Shown here piece after piece: positions 7,132 through 63,605 of a DNA stretch of 64,000 bases. Location: sequence record PZ019084.1. One strand, written 5' to 3'. Position 1 is the stretch's first letter; every line of letters starts with the position of its first letter. The notes below the pieces were generated by a model, which was given only the letters and a program-made list of their open reading frames with translations, ran no database searches and was not told where the DNA came from. This DNA comes from a phage. The translations under genes were made by a program, and so were the position numbers.

Positions 7132-7350
7132 TTATTTTACACCATTCCAAATTGTTTCAACCACAGATTTTAAGCCATTTTGGTGAATATCCATTCCGAC
7201 AACTGCCATCAAATAGATTCCAACTACAACTGAACCTAAGGCAAAAATCAGCATGAAAATGAATAAAGCTGGAAAAATATTATCGAAAAACCATTCAATA
7301 AATGTAAAAGCACTGCGTTTACGCTTCATATTTTCCTCACATAAATCCAA
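7132..7350 (-). CDS. small membrane protein
   Basis: 72 aa with central hydrophobic helix (FPALFIFMLIFALGSVVVGIYLMAVVG). Confidence 0.5.
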   Translation of the reverse strand: MDLCEENMKRKRSAFTFIEWFFDNIFPALFIFMLIFALGSVVVGIYLMAVVGMDIHQNGLKSVVETIWNGVK

Positions 7351-7450
7351 AGTAAGCGTTTAATACATCAATCATTAAAACGATTGGGAATATACTCAAA
7401 ACTACTAGTATTATAACTACATTCCATATAGCTTTAACAATCTTTTTCAT
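7337..7450 (-). CDS. small membrane protein (~37 aa)
   Basis: ATG at 7450 preceded by SD ggagg and an early promoter; MKKIVKAIWNVVIILVVLSIFPIVLMIDVLNAYFGFM; ORF-track form (to 7585) reads through the promoter. Confidence 0.4.
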   Translation of the reverse strand: MKKIVKAIWNVVIILVVLSIFPIVLMIDVLNAYFGFM

Positions 7451-7476
7451 TTTCTGTTCCTCCGTAGTTGATAGGG

Positions 7477-7509
7477 TAATAATACCACAGAGGAACAGTC
7501 TTGTAAACA
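7477..7509 (-). promoter_or_regulatory. T4-type early promoter
   Basis: minus strand GTTTAC (plus 7503-7508), 18-nt spacer, TATTAT; belongs to the repeated promoter/5'UTR cassette. Confidence 0.55.
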
Positions 7510-8807: not shown

Positions 8808-8871
8808 TAAACTTTCCTTTTACGTCGGAATCACTGATGTTAATATAATAAATCATAGTTTCCCTTAAAAC

Positions 8872-8890
8872 AAAAGGGCCGAAGCCCTTT
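8872..8890 (-). other. GC hairpin with CGAA loop in denB upstream intergenic region
   Basis: aaagggccgaagcccttt. Confidence 0.4.
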
Positions 8891-8893
8891 ACT

Positions 8894-9088
8894 TTATTTG
8901 AATTGTGCAATTCTTTTCTCTAAACAATCTGCGTAAGATTTCATTGAGATAAACTGCGAAAGCAGTAATTCTTGCTCAACTGCATTAACCGTTGAAAACT
9001 TTTCACTTTCTAAAAATTTGCTCAGTGCATTAATTTTGAGCATTAATTGATCGTATTCTTCTTTTACTCGTGCTTGATAACCTAACAT
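8894..9088 (-). CDS. hypothetical protein
   Basis: 64-aa ORF downstream of rIIB; preceded by hairpin and SD aaggaaa. Confidence 0.5.
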   Translation of the reverse strand: MLGYQARVKEEYDQLMLKINALSKFLESEKFSTVNAVEQELLLSQFISMKSYADCLEKRIAQFK

Positions 9089-9102: not shown

Positions 9103-9118
9103 AAGGGCCGAAGCCCTT
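9103..9118 (-). other. GC hairpin (CGAA loop) overlapping rIIB stop codon, upstream of next SD
   Basis: aagggccgaagccctt directly at rIIB stop, followed on the mRNA by aaggaaaatt ATG. Confidence 0.45.
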
Positions 9119-10055
9119 ATTTAAATTGTTCAGTAACGTCTTCAACTACTTCGTATTGGCAGGTACGCATTTTAGCATCGTTGTAATCAATCGGAATTGA
9201 TACTACATCGCGAGGATGTACTTTAACTTTTACAACTCGGCTGGTTGAACTGCCAAAGTGACGAATATAAGATTTAGAACACACATGCAGACCACGAGAA
9301 CAAGTTTGTGTATCATCGTCATTCACACGAGTACGTGGCATTTTAACTACTTTACCAGGACTGTTATCAAAAGTATTTGAATGGCAGTCAAAGTAATTGC
9401 TGCGAACTACTTTCCAGGCATAGAAGTAGCCGTCTTCTGTAATTTCAATATCGTTTGCTACCAAGAAATCAAAGAGTCGAGATACCGCTTTTTGGCTCGG
9501 GTTTTCTAACAGATTTTCCAAGAACGGAAAATAAAATTCAAAGTTTTCGCCTTTTTCCATCGAATCGAGAATACGATCAACTAAACCAGATCGCAATTCA
9601 ATATTTTGATAGAACAAGCTTCCACCTTCAATTCGAACATCACCGGAAATATATTTTTCAACAGCGCGACGAACGTTAATTTTTTGCGCCGCTTCTTCCA
9701 ATTTATCTGCAACAAGCAGATTAAGAATTTCTTGGAAGTTTGAATGAGTATTAGGAGTTGCGTTATAAGTTACACCGTCAACAGTAATTGAAATGAATTT
9801 TTTAGATGCATTCCAAATAATGTCAGATTTAGCAACTGGAGCAATAGCTGCATCGCTCTTAACTGTAACTGTAATGTCACCGCTAATGGTAACTTTGGAG
9901 CGCTCAGCTTCTTCAGCATTTTTCAAAACACGACGGATTGTGTCCACCGATACACCTTGCCAATCAGCCAATTCCTGTTGGGTGTAATTACCACTTGAAT
10001 ACAGTTTGACAATTTCAGCTTGTTCGTTTTTGGTCAGGCATTTAATATTGTACAT
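9117..10055 (-). CDS. rIIB: rapid-lysis/membrane-associated protein rIIB
   Basis: 312 aa starting MYNIKCLTKNEQAEIVKLYSSGNYTQQELADWQGVS; length and order rIIA-rIIB as in T4. Confidence 0.9.
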   Translation of the reverse strand: MYNIKCLTKNEQAEIVKLYSSGNYTQQELADWQGVSVDTIRRVLKNAEEAERSKVTISGDITVTVKSDAAIAPVAKSDIIWNASKKFISITVDGVTYNATPNTHSNFQEILNLLVADKLEEAAQKINVRRAVEKYISGDVRIEGGSLFYQNIELRSGLVDRILDSMEKGENFEFYFPFLENLLENPSQKAVSRLFDFLVANDIEITEDGYFYAWKVVRSNYFDCHSNTFDNSPGKVVKMPRTRVNDDDTQTCSRGLHVCSKSYIRHFGSSTSRVVKVKVHPRDVVSIPIDYNDAKMRTCQYEVVEDVTEQFK

Positions 10056-12481: not shown

Positions 12482-12514
12482 TAATTATACCACATCCTTG
12501 TGGTAAAGTAAACT
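12482..12514 (-). promoter_or_regulatory. T4-type early promoter
   Basis: minus strand GTTTAC (plus 12508-12513, overlapping gene 39 stop), 18-nt spacer, perfect TATAAT (plus 12484-12489). Confidence 0.6.
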
Positions 12515-14330: not shown

Positions 14331-14382
14331 CACTTATCCTCGTTTGGTTTCGGGAATATTATACTCCGGTAATCATAAAGCT

Positions 14383-14400
14383 AAAGGCCCGAAGGCCTTT
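14383..14400 (-). other. GC hairpin (CGAA loop) immediately after stop of lipoprotein gene
   Basis: aaaggcccgaaggccttt. Confidence 0.4.
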
Positions 14401-14672
14401 TATTTAAAACGGATAGTCGAATCCTTGAAGAATAGACCAGAACATACAGTTCCTTCTACTTTCTGCCCGGTAGGTCCAATAGCACGAAATCCAGTATGTT
14501 GGAAATCATTTTCAGAGCAACCGAACCAATTATATCCAGTGATTTCAATATTAGTAAAACCACTTGAAGACAAAACTTTGGTTGCATTATCAGCATCAGT
14601 ACATCCTACTAAAGATACTGCTAATACTAATGCCGCGATAGAACGATTAACATATTTCATAATTTCACTCAA
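14400..14672 (-). CDS. putative lipoprotein
   Basis: 90 aa; signal peptide with lipobox LVGC (AALVLAVSLVGCTD). Confidence 0.55.
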   Translation of the reverse strand: MSEIMKYVNRSIAALVLAVSLVGCTDADNATKVLSSSGFTNIEITGYNWFGCSENDFQHTGFRAIGPTGQKVEGTVCSGLFFKDSTIRFK

Positions 14673-21334: not shown

Positions 21335-21966
21335 TCAACTACCTCAATATCATACACTTTAAATGTTCCAAATGAATCGTGTAATTTTTCTTTTGAAATA
21401 GAAGTTATTTTATACTTTCCAATTGGAATCATCCATTCTTGTTCACGTACAATCATCATTAAGTTATCAGTACGTTCTGAATCTAATCCATCAGTATCTT
21501 CATATGTATACTTAAACTCAGTATTAGGAGAAGAAAGTATAATATCGCTGATATGGTCAGAGTAATTAAAAGCTTTATCAGTTTTTAAGCGAAGTACTAT
21601 TTCAGTGAAATATTCAGCATAAGAAAAAGAACACGCTGTATGCAAACTAGTAGTAAATGAATCTACTCTGTTCGTTGAAAACACTTCTCCGACTTGTAAA
21701 TCTTTAATGAGTTCTTTTGTCGATTTTGATATACCACGATATAGCTGATAAGGCGATTTAGTTAAATGCTTTTTAATGATTTTATTCAACTGCCGATGAA
21801 GAGCTTCATTCTTTTTGGCTTCCATACATTGCCAAAGAACTGACTGTTCAAAGTCAGTAAATTTTTCACAGACCTTTTTATACATATCATATTGAAAATC
21901 GACACTTTCAGCTTTTATAGATAACTGTTCAACATCTGTAAGATTAATAATCATGATAGCCTCCAT
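21331..21966 (-). CDS. modB: ADP-ribosyltransferase ModB
   Basis: 211 aa paralog of ModA with YRGIS and EQEWMIP motifs; tandem with modA. Confidence 0.6.
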   Translation of the reverse strand: MEAIMIINLTDVEQLSIKAESVDFQYDMYKKVCEKFTDFEQSVLWQCMEAKKNEALHRQLNKIIKKHLTKSPYQLYRGISKSTKELIKDLQVGEVFSTNRVDSFTTSLHTACSFSYAEYFTEIVLRLKTDKAFNYSDHISDIILSSPNTEFKYTYEDTDGLDSERTDNLMMIVREQEWMIPIGKYKITSISKEKLHDSFGTFKVYDIEVVE

Positions 21967-22021
21967 ATACTTCAGAAGCTATCATATCATTGTTAGGAAG
22001 GAAAGTAAACAACTTTTTGAA

Positions 22022-26778: not shown

Positions 26779-27405
26779 TTAACCTCTATTCATAAAAGCA
26801 TTAAAAATTTGGTCATCAATAGAAACATCTACTTTAGACTGTTTTTCTGACGGTAATTCATATCCACATATTACAATTTTGTGATCAATATCAAAATACA
26901 CAGAAGCAATATGATTAATGATGTTTTCAGTAAAGTCTAAATCAACATCAATATCTTTTTGACCACAGCCCAAAGGATAAATAATGCGAGTAATTCGATT
27001 ATCTTTAACAAAGATTCCACCGACATACTCTGTGCTGCGTTCAAAATCTACACGCCGACGAAATGAAAAATATTCAGGCTCTTTATGAGCTCTGCTCATA
27101 GGACACAACGAGTAACTAGAATAAGAGATGTCAAATCCTACGCCTTCGATATGAGCCAAAGTGTCATGATTAAACCAATTATAATCGTACGCCAAGTCCA
27201 TTAGATTATAATATGTAAAAGGCACCGGATTAACATCATTAGTCACAAGCATATAATTAGCAACTGCTATAATTTCATTGTTTTTAACGAATACAAACCG
27301 TGATTGATGCGAATGACCTGGACCCGCGTTTTCACGATTAATGATATAACACTGGGCACCTTTATATTTGTATGTATCTTTGCACTTGTGCATTTGATAG
27401 AGCAT
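26779..27405 (-). CDS. hypothetical protein (61.2 position)
   Basis: 208-aa ORF. Confidence 0.5.
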   Translation of the reverse strand: MLYQMHKCKDTYKYKGAQCYIINRENAGPGHSHQSRFVFVKNNEIIAVANYMLVTNDVNPVPFTYYNLMDLAYDYNWFNHDTLAHIEGVGFDISYSSYSLCPMSRAHKEPEYFSFRRRVDFERSTEYVGGIFVKDNRITRIIYPLGCGQKDIDVDLDFTENIINHIASVYFDIDHKIVICGYELPSEKQSKVDVSIDDQIFNAFMNRG

Positions 27406-33676: not shown

Positions 33677-33928
33677 TTAAAACTTAACAAATAATTTTAA
33701 AGCATCTTCAGTTTTAATTCCTTTTCTTACACCCATAACAGAAATTGGCTGTGACTGAAATTTTCCTTTGCCATTATAAATTTCTAACCCAGTCACCATT
33801 CCATTTTGTTCTATAATACCATAAGTATTACCTTCATTTTCGAATTCTTTAACTTTAAAGAGTTTATTAGCTTTTTCTGCATTAACAACTTTTAAATTTT
33901 GAATAAAATTAGTTTGAATGTTTTTCAT
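33677..33928 (-). CDS. hypothetical protein (~83 aa)
   Basis: start set at ATG 33928 (MKNIQTNFIQ...) after early promoter and SD ggagg; ORF-track form reads through the promoter. Confidence 0.5.
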   Translation of the reverse strand: MKNIQTNFIQNLKVVNAEKANKLFKVKEFENEGNTYGIIEQNGMVTGLEIYNGKGKFQSQPISVMGVRKGIKTEDALKLFVKF

Positions 33929-33954
33929 TTTGTGTTCCTCCGTAGTTGATAGTT

Positions 33955-33987
33955 GTATAGTACCACGGAGGAACAGTCTTGTAAACA
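33955..33987 (-). promoter_or_regulatory. T4-type early promoter (repeated cassette)
   Basis: minus strand GTTTAC (plus 33981-33986), 18-nt spacer, TACTAT (plus 33957-33962). Confidence 0.55.
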
Positions 33988-34069
33988 GTTTTGTGAAAAA
34001 ATTTTTAATGAATTTACAGGACCTAGAATCATCTATTTTTCTTAAGTATAGATTTATATTACTTGTATG

Positions 34070-34090
34070 AAAAAGGGACCCGGAGGTCCC
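34070..34090 (-). terminator. rho-independent terminator downstream of gene 43
   Basis: gggacccggaggtccc hairpin followed on the minus strand by a U-run (plus aaaaa). Confidence 0.55.
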
Positions 34091-34103
34091 TAGATTTATT
34101 CTA

Positions 34104-36800: not shown

Positions 36801-36858
36801 AGATATTCCTTAGTTTATAGCCCGAGTTATTAGGCTCTTGATATATTATACTCCAAAT

Positions 36859-36876
36859 AAGGGGCCGAAGCCCCTT
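36859..36876 (-). other. GC hairpin (CGAA loop) between regA stop and gene 43 leader
   Basis: aaggggccgaagcccctt abutting regA stop. Confidence 0.4.
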
Positions 36877-36878
36877 GC

Positions 36879-37247
36879 TTAATTACCAATCGTATATTTA
36901 GGAACGAGTTTCCATTCGTGTTTTTGTTTAAAAGAAATAACTCGGAAGTTATTGGTTAAATCTTTCATAAAAGTTCTTTGACCAGGAACGATTTCAATCA
37001 GTCCCCAATCTTCTAACAGCCACGCAATCGAATCACGGCGAACTTCATCTTCTTCTGTCATTTCAACCTGACGGCCATCCATACGAAGCATTTCTTTAAA
37101 ATGAACGATATAGTATAGTCCTTTTTTCTGAAGAATGTGGCAGGACTGATACAGAACTTTATCTTTATTATTAGCAATTCCCATACGAGTCAAAGTTTCT
37201 TTTACTTTCAGAAAATCTTCAGGTTTTTTAAGAGTAATTTCAATCAT
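36879..37247 (-). CDS. regA: translational repressor RegA
   Basis: 122 aa, same length and position (62-regA-43) as T4 RegA. Confidence 0.8.
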   Translation of the reverse strand: MIEITLKKPEDFLKVKETLTRMGIANNKDKVLYQSCHILQKKGLYYIVHFKEMLRMDGRQVEMTEEDEVRRDSIAWLLEDWGLIEIVPGQRTFMKDLTNNFRVISFKQKHEWKLVPKYTIGN

Positions 37248-38788: not shown

Positions 38789-38804
38789 GTTTTAGTGTAA
38801 ATTT

Positions 38805-38820
38805 AAGGGCCGAAGCCCTT
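38805..38820 (-). other. GC hairpin (CGAA loop) between gene 45 stop and gene 44 SD
   Basis: aagggccgaagccctt followed on the mRNA by ...gaggaaatt ATG. Confidence 0.45.
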
Positions 38821-38822
38821 TA

Positions 38823-39509
38823 TTAAAAGTCGTGGGTAGAATCAGCTTCAAGAGCTACTACATAATTCGCATGTTCACCTTCAAATTTAGCAGCGCCTTG
38901 TTTACCTTTTGCCCAGAGCAGAAGTTTATAATTTCCTGGTTGCATTTTCATATTTGCCATATTGATAATGAAATTAAATGTATTTTCACCATCATAATCA
39001 CCAAGAGTCAAAGAATATTTAACACGGGTCAAAGCAGAATCTTCCACTTTATTAAAACCGTTAATTACAATTTTACCTTCTTTTACTGTGATAGCAATTG
39101 TATCAATCTGCAGACCACGAGATACACGCAACAGCTGTTGAAGGTCTTCAGCTTTAATTTCAGTAACAACAGATGCTACCGGGAATGGAATTGGTTTATT
39201 AGGAGCAACTACTGTGCTCGGATCAGCTGCTGGCCAAAAAATTGTTGAACGGGCATCAGCAATTTTAATATTTCCATCTTCTGACTGGGAAATTTCTGCA
39301 TCGTCATTAACTAAGGACAGAATACCGAGAAAACCGTTCAAATCGTAAATCGCTACATCAAAATCAATAGTGTCAGAAATATTTGCTTCCGCATAAGTTG
39401 TACCATTAACTGCGCGAGTCATAATAAATTGACCGGATTTAAGCATAATACCGGAGTTAATAGTAGCGAAATTTTTAAGCAGAGCAGTAGTATCTTTAGA
39501 CAGTTTCAT
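38823..39509 (-). CDS. 45: sliding clamp
   Basis: 228 aa, same length and position as T4 gp45. Confidence 0.9.
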   Translation of the reverse strand: MKLSKDTTALLKNFATINSGIMLKSGQFIMTRAVNGTTYAEANISDTIDFDVAIYDLNGFLGILSLVNDDAEISQSEDGNIKIADARSTIFWPAADPSTVVAPNKPIPFPVASVVTEIKAEDLQQLLRVSRGLQIDTIAITVKEGKIVINGFNKVEDSALTRVKYSLTLGDYDGENTFNFIINMANMKMQPGNYKLLLWAKGKQGAAKFEGEHANYVVALEADSTHDF

Positions 39510-44067: not shown

Positions 44068-44227
44068 ATATCAAGAACCGTCATTGAAATGCAAAATAAA
44101 ATTATTGAAATAAATCCGTCCGGAGTGCTAAAGAACCCAATCCAACATGCTCTAGTGAATAGATAAAATGCGAGAAAAAGTATCACATATCCAAGAAATA
44201 TCATTATATCAAACTCCGTATAAAGCT

Positions 44228-44245
44228 AAAGGGCCGAAGCCCTTT
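44228..44245 (-). other. GC hairpin (CGAA loop) overlapping a-gt stop
   Basis: aaagggccgaagcccttt. Confidence 0.4.
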
Positions 44246-45446
44246 ATTTTGTAATAATGTCAAACTGTTCTTTAAAGCAGAAGCTTGAATCTTGATGCTG
44301 ATACAAAAATTCATAAGCTTTTTCGCGTTCACGGTCATAAAGAGCTCGGTCAGATGACAGTTCTTTAATACGCTCAAATGTTGATTCCATGTCATTTTCA
44401 TCAAACCAAACGATACCGCTATCATGAGAAATTAACGGAGTATTATCAACACGGAATTTTAAATTTTCGCCAGTAGATTTCCAAAATACTGGAATTGTTC
44501 CACATGCACCAAGCTCGAGATGAGTATATTCTAAAGAACGTTGTAGATATTTTTTGTCCAACTTACTCAGCTGATAACCAAATCCAGATTTACTCATGCG
44601 TTCAAGCATTTCGCTATTTACATAACGGTCAAGAATTTGCGTTGGCAAATTAGGAGCAATTTTAATTTGGTCTACTTGATGAAGACGATAATACTCGTAT
44701 GGAATTCCTTTTTCTTTAATAGGAATGAACGCTGGAGAACGTTCCAGACCTTCCATAATAGTACTTAACCCTGCAGGTTTAAGATGTTTTTCGTGAAAAT
44801 CAAACATCTGATAAAAACCTTTCCATGTAGTAGTACGACCAATCCAACGGTTGATATTCATGTTAATTTCAGAAACATCTTTCCAGTAAGTTGATCGAAC
44901 CTTCGCAATATCCATAGGAGGCTGAAAGTTGTATACAGTCGGTGCTTCTTCAATATCATCAAACAGTGAAACAGTTTCTGGATACCATTCTTTCATCAGA
45001 ACTTTATTAAAATCACCATTATCAGAATGACTAAAAATAACATCAGCTCGGCGAACAGTTTCTTCTAATCCCAAATTTCGACGCAAAGAAAGAGAAGAAT
45101 GGTCATGTTGATAAACTACAACACGAACCGAAGGTTTAATGTTATCAATAATTTTTTTATAGTTATTAATAGTGTCTTCTTCGACTGAAGTAGCAGGAAC
45201 TGAATTGATAACTAGAATATCACAATCATTTACCAGCTTAAGCGTTTTATCGTATTCTTTTGCCAATAAAACCGGAATTGAAAATGATTTATAATCATGC
45301 GCGCAATTACGTGTAAATGATTTATCTTTAGCATAAACCAAAGTTACTTCATGACCATTTTTAATAAACCAATCACGCTGCTCAAGAGAAAATTTAGTTA
45401 CGCCACAACCTTCAAGACCTCGAGCCATAAAAATGCATACTTTCAT
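44244..45446 (-). CDS. agt: alpha-glucosyltransferase
   Basis: 400 aa, same length as T4 alpha-gt; position between 47 and 55. Confidence 0.85.
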   Translation of the reverse strand: MKVCIFMARGLEGCGVTKFSLEQRDWFIKNGHEVTLVYAKDKSFTRNCAHDYKSFSIPVLLAKEYDKTLKLVNDCDILVINSVPATSVEEDTINNYKKIIDNIKPSVRVVVYQHDHSSLSLRRNLGLEETVRRADVIFSHSDNGDFNKVLMKEWYPETVSLFDDIEEAPTVYNFQPPMDIAKVRSTYWKDVSEINMNINRWIGRTTTWKGFYQMFDFHEKHLKPAGLSTIMEGLERSPAFIPIKEKGIPYEYYRLHQVDQIKIAPNLPTQILDRYVNSEMLERMSKSGFGYQLSKLDKKYLQRSLEYTHLELGACGTIPVFWKSTGENLKFRVDNTPLISHDSGIVWFDENDMESTFERIKELSSDRALYDREREKAYEFLYQHQDSSFCFKEQFDIITK

Positions 45447-47829: not shown

Positions 47830-47863
47830 ACATTATCCTCAATTACGTTAAAATTTTATTATC

Positions 47864-47883
47864 CAAAAAGGGCCGAAGCCCTT
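47864..47883 (-). terminator. rho-independent terminator-like hairpin
   Basis: aagggccgaagccctt followed on the minus strand by a U-rich run (plus atccaaaaa). Confidence 0.5.
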
Positions 47884-48082
47884 AGCTAAACTGTTTGGCA
47901 CCCTTCCAGCCTTCGTACATCATTGCAGCTGATATTAATATTGCTCCTGCGCATTTTGAATATTTGTGATTCCAAAACCAGTTCAGAAAAACTTCGTCAT
48001 CAATACCTTGGGCTATCATATTTTCAAAGAACTGGCGACGAGCTTCAGCAATTCGTTGCGATAATTTAGATTCAGGATTCAT
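47882..48082 (-). CDS. hypothetical protein
   Basis: 66-aa ORF. Confidence 0.5.
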   Translation of the reverse strand: MNPESKLSQRIAEARRQFFENMIAQGIDDEVFLNWFWNHKYSKCAGAILISAAMMYEGWKGAKQFS

Positions 48083-58803: not shown

Positions 58804-59331
58804 TTATGCGAGTACCGTCTTTAACCGTTCTTCAAACTTCCGAAGAGTATTTTGGCGTTCAGCTCTTTGCTTTTTGTAAGTTTCAATACGCTCTGAAATG
58901 AGAGTGTATCGTTCATTTACTGATTCTTTCATAAAATCAGGAATTTCACGAGAAGCTTTAATCTCGTCAAATTTATCAATAACAGCTTGCTCTTCAGCAA
59001 TTAAGTTATCATACATTAAAATATCTTTCTTGATGAACTCAATATCTTCTTGAGTTACACGAGATAATTTAGATGCTTTATCCTTTTTGTACTGTTCATT
59101 AGTATCACGAGACCAGTGTAATGTACGATTTTTATTCGTATTTTTGTAAATTTCTACAATACCAATCTCATCAATAATAACGATCCAATTCCAACGGGAT
59201 TTGTAAATTTGTCCTCCATCAACAGTGATTTCACCTCCGATTGAGATGTCGTTAAAGAACTTGCTTTGTGCTTCAGATTTAAATTTACCATCGTTGTAAT
59301 TTACCAAGTTGAAAATATCTTTAGCGTTCAT
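58804..59331 (-). CDS. hypothetical protein
   Basis: 175 aa; start follows early promoter cassette and SD ggagg. Confidence 0.55.
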   Translation of the reverse strand: MNAKDIFNLVNYNDGKFKSEAQSKFFNDISIGGEITVDGGQIYKSRWNWIVIIDEIGIVEIYKNTNKNRTLHWSRDTNEQYKKDKASKLSRVTQEDIEFIKKDILMYDNLIAEEQAVIDKFDEIKASREIPDFMKESVNERYTLISERIETYKKQRAERQNTLRKFEERLKTVLA

Positions 59332-59357
59332 TTTGTGTTCCTCCGTAGTTGATAGTT

Positions 59358-59390
59358 GTATAGTACCACAGAGGAACAGTCTTGTAAACT
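59358..59390 (-). promoter_or_regulatory. T4-type early promoter (repeated cassette)
   Basis: minus strand GTTTAC (plus 59384-59389), 18-nt spacer, TACTAT; about 60 nt nearly identical to 33928-33987. Confidence 0.55.
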
Positions 59391-59391
59391 A

Positions 59392-59706
59392 CTAAAAGAA
59401 ACTTCTTTCACAATTTTTTCCACTGAACCATGCGCTCACTACTTTCTTAGTCTCAGGAGCAGTGTTATCCATAAACCATTCAAAGGCAGCCTTTTTATGA
59501 TTCTGGAGGGCTTCTCGGGCTTTAATCTGCTCGCGGTCTATTAACACTAACATATGAGCCTTTCTTGTCACCATGGGCTTCTTATGATTTTTTGAATACT
59601 CCCAGTCATTTGTCCATCGCATTGTCGTTGCGAACTGAAATACTGCTTCTTTAATTTTAGTTTCGTAAATTTCACGAGCCTTTGAGTATAACATCACTAC
59701 CTCCAT
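59392..59706 (-). CDS. hypothetical protein
   Basis: 104-aa ORF. Confidence 0.5.
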   Translation of the reverse strand: MEVVMLYSKAREIYETKIKEAVFQFATTMRWTNDWEYSKNHKKPMVTRKAHMLVLIDREQIKAREALQNHKKAAFEWFMDNTAPETKKVVSAWFSGKNCERSFF

Positions 59707-60796: not shown

Positions 60797-60829
60797 GTAT
60801 AGTACCATAAAGCTTTATGCTTGTAAACC
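60797..60829 (-). promoter_or_regulatory. T4-type early promoter
   Basis: minus strand GTTTAC (plus 60823-60828), 18-nt spacer, TACTAT; cassette nearly identical to the motA promoter region. Confidence 0.55.
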
Positions 60830-63572: not shown

Positions 63573-63605
63573 TTACTATACCATAACCTTGCCAACTTGT
63601 AAACA
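63573..63605 (-). promoter_or_regulatory. T4-type early promoter
   Basis: minus strand GTTTAC (plus 63599-63604), 18-nt spacer, TATAGT. Confidence 0.5.

Follow-up and report, generated by a model that had tools for sequence, protein, structure and literature searches.

A 61-nt cassette carried three times by a Tequatrovirus (T2/T4-like phage) combines an early promoter with an inverted repeat, in which the promoter spacer is complementary to the SD of the gene that follows. RNA reading through the cassette from upstream is predicted to bury this SD in a stem, whereas RNA started at the promoter of the cassette is predicted to leave it open. The best overall explanation, in which we have moderate confidence, is that these are early-promoter cassettes of the PeSL kind whose spacer acts as an anti-SD, gating translation and also serving recombination.

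The window analyzed here is the whole stretch of 64,000 nucleotides from sequence record PZ019084.1, and its early genes are on the minus strand. The cassette is found at 33926-33986 (copy A), 59329-59389 (copy B), and 7448-7508 (copy C), all on the minus strand, with the -35 hexamers starting at 33985, 59388, and 7507, respectively. Copies A and B differ only at a single position (G/A at 33963/59366), and copy C has six differences from the others. A search with the 26-nt core pattern, allowing up to three mismatches, gives exactly three sites, on the minus strand, while the number expected from 100 shuffles is 0.00. Around copy A, where gene 43, regA, imm, and imm.1 are minus-strand genes, the sequence shares 96-98% identity with many Tequatrovirus genomes. 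T4 itself carries the SD-masking cassette at nrdC.8 and ndd.4.

The preliminary description of this DNA had placed the cassette at the same positions, with one mismatch between copies A and B and a variant as copy C, and this is borne out by the sequence. So are the inverted-repeat arms around the -10 element (GTTCCTCYGT and ACGGAGGAAC), with the SD (GGAGG) located within the 3' arm. The cassette text given there is correct as sequence, but it was quoted from the plus strand, and the functional strand is the minus strand. The word "triplicated" holds for the SD-masking subtype only and not for the wider family, whose core (TGGTACTATACAACTATCAACT) is present in at least seven early promoters of the window and at 6-8 places per genome across 545 records. 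The reading as an early-promoter cassette stands, though the family of recombining cassettes was missed. The elements of the three copies are located as follows.

34074-34091, minus strand: intrinsic terminator of gene 43 (AGGGACCTCCGGGTCCCT and then TTTTT), just upstream of copy A
33987-34012, minus strand: UP-like A/T-rich tract of copy A (aaaaattttttcacaaaactg), upstream of the -35 element and common to other early promoters in the window
33980-33985, minus strand: -35 hexamer of copy A (TTTACA in GTTTACA)
33962-33975, minus strand: 5' arm of copy A (UGUUCCUCCGUGGU), filling the promoter spacer to the first base of the -10 element
33957-33962, minus strand: -10 hexamer of copy A (TACTAT, with TGG before it), in the hairpin loop (33947-33961)
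about 33950, minus strand: putative +1 of copy A, placed from the usual 7-nt distance to the -10 element
33933-33946, minus strand: 3' arm of copy A (ACUACGGAGGAACA), with the SD GGAGG at 33937-33941
33677-33928, minus strand: orf83, gene of copy A (83 aa, phrog_18567)
59385-59405, minus strand: 5' strand of the predicted outer helix of copy B (last codons of nrdC.9 and the -35 element), pairing with 59312-59330
59329-59389, minus strand: full cassette of copy B, between the nrdC.9 stop codon (59392-59394) and the nrdC.8 ATG (59329-59331)
59383-59388 and 59360-59365, minus strand: -35 and -10 elements of copy B
59365-59378 and 59336-59349, minus strand: 5' arm and 3' arm of copy B, with the SD at 59340-59344
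58804-59331, minus strand: nrdC.8, gene of copy B (175 aa)
7448-7508, minus strand: full cassette of copy C, between the ndd.5 stop codon (7516) and the ndd.4 ATG (7448-7450)
7502-7507 and 7479-7484, minus strand: -35 and -10 (TATTAT) elements of copy C
7484-7498 and 7454-7468, minus strand: 5' arm and 3' arm of copy C, with the SD at 7459-7463
7337-7450, minus strand: ndd.4 homologue, gene of copy C (37 aa, predicted membrane peptide)

Every copy consists of an A/T-rich upstream tract, a -35 element (GTTTACA), a 17-nt spacer, TGG as an extended -10, TAYTAT, the leader ACGGAGGAAC, and ATG, and the SD (GGAGG) is 8 nt 5' of the ATG. The full cassette on the minus strand is aaaaattttttcacaaaactg-TTTACA-agactgTTCCTCCGTGG-TACTAT-acaactatcaACTACGGAGGAAC-acaaa-ATG. 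The A/T tract, the GTTTAC-type -35 element, TGn, the good -10 element, and the 17-nt spacing are all shared with the early promoters of T4 ("uber" promoters; Hinton 2010, PMC2988021). That paper cites "additional regions of consensus" but describes neither dyad symmetry nor complementarity between spacer and leader. In phage fPS-90, the cassette site carries the annotation "predicted early promoter." Judging from these elements, the promoter is probably active, and its +1 would be about 7 nt past the -10 element and 22 nt before the ATG; a T4 dRNA-seq preprint (10.1101/2024.04.04.588121) reports 150 T4 TSSs. An Rfam scan of the window gave no match at the gathering score. The nearest match to copy A (RT-6, E = 0.12, 17.7 bits vs. 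a threshold of 46.7) is at chance level.

The 5' arm lies in the promoter spacer, upstream of any start at this promoter, and RNA started at the cassette promoter must therefore lack the arm, as the preliminary description had claimed. In the 86-nt read-through RNA, in which the promoter is included, a stem of 14-15 bp is predicted. The 15-nt loop holds the -10 element, and the 3' strand of the stem holds the whole SD. The MFE of this RNA is -23.4 to -27.2 kcal/mol with z of -3.6 to -5.0 for the three copies, and RNA beginning near the putative +1 has a predicted fold of 0 to -1.6 kcal/mol. The mean probability that the SD is unpaired is 0.61-0.75 in the proximal RNA and 0.00-0.06 in the read-through RNA. 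If the 5' extension is shuffled, this probability is 0.39-0.47, and the observed value is reached in none of 30 shuffles. This is the comparison of read-through and promoter-proximal RNA proposed in the preliminary description, and its result agrees with the proposal: the SD is buried in one RNA and open in the other. Folding energies too weak to occlude the SD, named there as grounds for rejection, are not what is predicted. The SD is likewise masked in the read-through RNA and open in the proximal RNA in 22 cassettes from other phages and metagenomes. Taken alone, the hairpin is predicted at -20 to -22 kcal/mol as sense RNA, and its antisense version is less stable by 3-7 kcal/mol.

These models suggest a mechanism in which each cassette would drive a small accessory gene immediately after infection. 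The spacer would serve as an anti-SD; read-through RNA, having both arms, would fold into a stem-loop of 13-15 bp that makes the gene untranslatable, and RNA from the cassette's own promoter would start about 14 nt downstream of the 5' arm with the SD open. The gene's own early promoter would then be the sole determinant of its translation, which would be shielded from transcription entering from upstream and limited to the time when early promoters are in use. We lean slightly toward read-through RNA being translationally masked in vivo, judging from the predicted folds. It is possible, though rather doubtful, that masking is a selected function and not a by-product of a generic stem-loop. 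Equally tentative is the idea that the subtype is a self-contained expression insulator, which would make translation immediate-early only, whatever RNA accumulates from early, middle, or late promoters farther upstream. It would be an early mirror of the late switch of T4, selected at least twice (in Tequatrovirus and at nrdC.8 of Dhakavirus).

In T4 e, soc, 49, I-TevI/II/III, and segB and in Aeh1 mobE, a helix over the SD or AUG silences long transcripts, and in genes of the e/soc/49/I-TevI type a promoter inside the structure gives translated RNA without the 5' strand (PMC3014915, PMC2988022). The present cassettes resemble this switch in that the SD is predicted to be paired on upstream-started RNA, and in that the RNA of the internal promoter, whose activity we infer, lacks the 5' strand. 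However, the internal promoter of the T4 switch is a late one (gp55, TATAAATA), whereas that of the cassettes is of the early sigma70 type, with a -35 element and TGn and without TATAAATA. Since the internal promoter is early here, the predicted logic is reversed, with translation only from immediate-early, promoter-proximal RNA. The preliminary description regarded the cassette as a switch of the kind reported for T4 genes; the likeness is good for the predicted SD pairing and the internal promoter, but the published T4 cases that we found all use late promoters. Our literature search found no description of an early-promoter version of the promoter-in-hairpin switch, and no data on transcript-dependent translation of nrdC.8, ndd.4, or orf83.

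Masking on read-through RNA presupposes such RNA. Copies B and C begin 3-8 nt (within 13 nt) past the stop codons of nrdC.9 and ndd.5, respectively, and end at the ATG. A consensus terminator scan, which does detect the nearby gene 43 and nrdC.11 terminators, found none between the strong early promoters at 60827 and 8232 and copies B and C, respectively. Since the upstream stop codon abuts and no terminator intervenes, read-through RNA is expected at both copies. At copy A, little read-through is expected, since the strong terminator of gene 43 precedes it by about 90 nt. T4-type genomes stack strong early promoters head to tail, so that a downstream gene is covered by transcripts from several promoters as well as by those of later transcription modes. 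We infer from these arrangements that read-through RNA exists and folds in vivo. A ribosome ending nrdC.9 would come to a halt 14 nt short of where the stem begins to pair, and judging from the size of the ribosome footprint, it would probably not open the stem.

PeSLs were defined in RB49/phi1 as elements that adjoin ORFans and recombine mutually (Arbiol et al. 2010, PMC2839356), and they were later extended to T4/PST, with ndd.4/.5 named as an exchange site (Comeau et al. 2014, PMC4122927). Recombination between copies yields mini-circles and the stem-loop terminates transcription according to these papers. A PeSL has a sigma70-like early promoter with an A/T tract, and TTTACA-N17-TAYTAT of the present cassettes fits TTTACW-N17-TAYWAT of T4/PST (PMC4122927). 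Its stable stem-loop lies between the -35 and -10 elements, overlaps the -10 element, or lies just upstream, and all three copies have a stem-loop so placed. The PeSL cassette starts at the upstream stop codon, followed by the SD and ATG; copies B and C are alike in this respect, while copy A follows the gene 43 terminator. Multiple conserved copies beside small ORFs, with indels and exchanges between close relatives in plastic regions, are found here as in the PeSL papers. At the sequence level, the present cassettes thus have every feature of PeSLs and are one subtype of PeSL cassettes. They are very probably early promoters of this family. The stem-loop is given terminator/attenuator and recombination roles in the accessible text of the PeSL papers, which does not describe the 3' arm as the SD or masking on read-through RNA. 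In the PST/T4 pair (Comeau 2014, PMC4122927), moreover, the stem-loops are placed just upstream of the promoter, unlike those in the present cassettes.

The junction between nrdC.9 and nrdC.8 can be compared among four genera.

Tequatrovirus: 5' arm GUUCCUCUGUGG, 3' arm ACGGAGGAAC; SD in the stem; spacer-SD duplex -20.8 kcal/mol
Dhakavirus (4 phages): 5' arm AUCUCCAGUAG, 3' arm CUACUGGAGGU; SD in the stem; spacer-SD duplex -17.1 kcal/mol
Mosigvirus: 5' arm AGGUCUAU, 3' arm AUAGACCU; SD not in the stem; duplex at background level
Gaprivervirus: 5' arm AGUAUGGGGA, 3' arm UUCCCAUACU; SD not in the stem; duplex at background level

A stem-loop around the -10 element of the nrdC.8 promoter is thus present in all four genera, and it includes the SD in two. 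The duplex energy of Dhakavirus is reached by none of 3000 random 17-mers, and that of the Tequatrovirus spacer is reached by two of 3000, both of them probably copies of the cassette that the sampling drew from the window. In sequence, the Dhakavirus spacer has no relation to that of Tequatrovirus, and its pairing segment is at a different place in the spacer. What the genera conserve may be the stem-loop itself rather than SD masking. The occurrence of SD masking in two genera with unrelated sequences argues that masking was selected there, though not as the only function of the stem-loop. At copy B, the outer helix covers UG of the nrdC.8 start codon and codons 2-7, and both strands of the helix are coding. 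In a 118-nt RNA, this helix has z = -3.65 in Tequatrovirus and is stronger in Dhakavirus (L086:416-533; -37.4 kcal/mol, z = -6.37).

About 18 T4-type early promoters are found on the minus strand of the window. The cores of 16 independent ones have lower folding energies than background 56-mers (p = 0.009, Mann-Whitney), with seven of the 16 in the lowest 3%, and the stem-loops around their -10 elements mostly leave the SD untouched. At 17 other early promoters of the window, the accessibility of the SD in read-through RNA is at background, with no loss. The spacer-SD duplex of the SD-masking subtype is about -20.7 kcal/mol vs. a background mean of -3.4, and that of 14 other early promoters (with one representative of the subtype) lies at background (median percentile 0.43). 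These accessibilities and duplex energies rule out that the early promoters of this phage mask the SD as a rule. Stem-loops enclosing the -10 element are common, and SD masking is specific to this subtype.

The main rival explanation is that the stem-loop is an attenuator or terminator for polymerase coming from upstream and that the pairing with the SD is incidental. Attenuation of upstream transcription is the role proposed for the stem-loop by Arbiol et al. (PMC2839356), who found that one RB49 PeSL stem-loop cut downstream lacZ as strongly as rrnB T1. Stable folding of early-promoter cores into stem-loops that mostly avoid the SD, and a hairpin at the nrdC.8 promoter that is more widespread among the genera than SD pairing, are also what this rival would lead one to expect. 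The RB49 stem tested is, however, of the polyG/polyC type, different from the present one. As a candidate intrinsic terminator, the hairpin of the cassettes fails: its loop is 15 nt long, its tail is ACACAAAAUG without a T-run (ACACAAAAUGAAAAA in the place of a U-run), and the scan gave no match at any of the three copies. A canonical terminator, that of gene 43, is already present upstream of copy A. Attenuation is not favored by the sequence because a U-run is lacking, and we consider it unlikely.

Conservation among relatives bears on whether the inverted repeat acts as RNA at all. In 20 distinct variants of the subtype, including those of T4 and T2, the 13 core pairs are kept in all 20. 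The four variable stem pairs always change C-to-U, converting G-C to G-U, and so remain paired on the sense RNA only. No double compensatory change was found among the 20 variants, and shuffles equal the observed covariation value. The pattern is consistent with an RNA stem, but stem conservation among close relatives that exchange sequence counts as weak evidence. In the natural recombinants L041 and L048, the 5' arm is joined to a different leader, and in another, L044, a similar leader follows a different spacer. The SD is not masked in any of these recombinants, and masking is therefore not obligatory.

The inverted repeat could also be without RNA function, as part of a promoter homogenized by recombination, its complementarity being either an accident frozen in one ancestral cassette or a feature of the DNA itself, for example a cruciform or a protein-binding site. 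The common ancestry of the copies and their exchange of sequence would suit such an origin, as would the lack of double compensatory changes and the one-armed recombinants found in nature. Contrary to it, random 17-mers hardly ever match the SD region this well, and all four stem substitutions are of the kind that pairs on the sense strand only, where the hairpin is also more stable. Neither the G-U nor the energy asymmetry is expected of a feature of duplex DNA, which makes a cruciform or protein site unlikely. Furthermore, Dhakavirus masks the SD with its unrelated spacer, and other promoters have independent stems at the same position (GGGTA/TACCC vs. GGGTT/AACCC, and CCACA/TGTGG vs. CACC/GGTG). 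An inverted repeat without RNA function is consequently quite improbable.

RegB requires single-stranded GGAG and downstream sequence, and structured GGAG sites resist it; in T4-infected cells, the GGAG of nrdC.8 is "moderately cleaved" (PMC1702504). Since RegB cleaves this site in vivo, at least part of the nrdC.8 RNA has an open SD, and moderate cleavage fits a mix of open and closed RNA. The sequence after this GGAG (GAACACAAA), however, fits the RegB/S1 consensus GGAGRAYARAA poorly, and this alone could explain the moderate cleavage. That the hairpin serves to protect RNA, shielding the GGAG of read-through RNA from RegB or stabilizing processed ends, would accord with the same cleavage behavior but is very improbable: a protected SD is fully paired and still untranslatable, and protection alone therefore gives the gene no benefit.

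Gating of translation by an anti-SD spacer, the explanation preferred here, goes together with recombination of the cassettes. A scan of viral and metagenome contigs found 96 cassettes of the family, 64 of them distinct. Among the nrdC.8 and ndd.4 loci, cassettes of the SD-masking subtype show every one of the four possible combinations of two variant blocks, ACAA/TACC and C/G at column 66, and the nrdC.8 cassette of one phage is identical to the ndd.4 cassette of the window. The copies very likely recombine with each other. Being repeated, the cassette of about 80 nt gives recombination a stretch of homology through which the genes behind it can be moved or replaced. If the subtype is an expression insulator, a newly acquired gene would inherit autonomous control at once, since both arms travel together in recombination. 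In Mosigvirus phiC120 (L081:1520-1600), the UP tract, -35 element, spacer, -10 element, and initial core are about 91% identical, and the leader and gene are different; within Tevenvirinae, the promoter module is therefore not confined to one genus.

Copies A, B, and C head orf83 (which adjoins gene 43), nrdC.8, and ndd.4, respectively. For the three proteins, the only matches are to PHROG families of unknown function, with none in Pfam. orf83 lies between gene 43 and imm.1 in T2-type phages and is absent from T4, and its family (phrog_18567) is found in only 31 of the 545 Tequatrovirus records with a match. In T4, the same UP tract, -35 element, and core are placed directly on imm.1 (window 33677-34010 vs. 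T4 27014-27196, L080). Compared with T4, this phage has the SD-masking leader and orf83 inserted exactly at the cassette. In genomes with orf83, imm.1 lacks a promoter-proximal leader of its own, and a short taagaggaaattgtt junction serves it instead.

If the hairpin works as predicted, it explains how small, possibly toxic accessory genes are dosed and timed by their own promoters. It would also add a translational function to PeSLs, for which the only roles discussed so far are those of promoter, attenuator, and recombination site. The cassette combines two known features of T4 in a new way and reveals no new kind of system. The idea is directly testable in T4, since T4 has the same cassette at two genes.

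The start of ndd.4 in T4 should be mentioned in this connection. The annotated start ATG (AF158101, 166749-166764; L028) lies within the SD and owes its existence to a C-to-T change (ctATGgaggaacagaaaATG). Five codons downstream of the annotated start is the ATG that the SD serves, which corresponds to the start of the 37-aa ORF in the window. The T4 annotation of ndd.4 is probably five codons too long.

An early promoter of unrelated sequence precedes the modA-like gene (21940-22020, minus strand; -35 element at 22009, ATG at about 21954). Its -10 element and the bases after it (GAUAGCUUC) are complementary to the SD and start codon (GGAGGCUAUCAUG). The 81-nt read-through RNA is predicted at -19.3 kcal/mol (z = -3.1), with the SD and AUG both paired. 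This promoter may be a second, independent mask of a translation start embedded in a promoter, judging from the predicted fold.

The early promoters with -35 elements at 63603, 28258, 17030, and 15997 (minus strand) have their own inverted repeats of 9-15 bp flanking the -10 element. Their folding energies, -17 to -20 kcal/mol, rank among the lowest 1% of background, and their 3' arms are without the SD. In several of the stems, some pairs are G-U, which form on the sense strand only. At the promoters at 12512, 56405, and 8232 (minus strand), a palindrome within the spacer (TACCACA-aggay-TGTGGTA) runs with its last bases into the -10 element. In a metagenome variant (L045:441), the corresponding sequence is TACACC-aaggac-GGTGTA, the hairpin being kept through two-sided changes.

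Near-identical G+C-rich hairpins, AAGGGCCGAAGCCCTT(T), are repeated at least seven times in the window (8866-8895, 9103-9130, 14376-14405, 36852-36881, 38797-38826, 44221-44250, and 47860-47889). These hairpins look like a shared terminator module, and being palindromic, they are readable on both strands.
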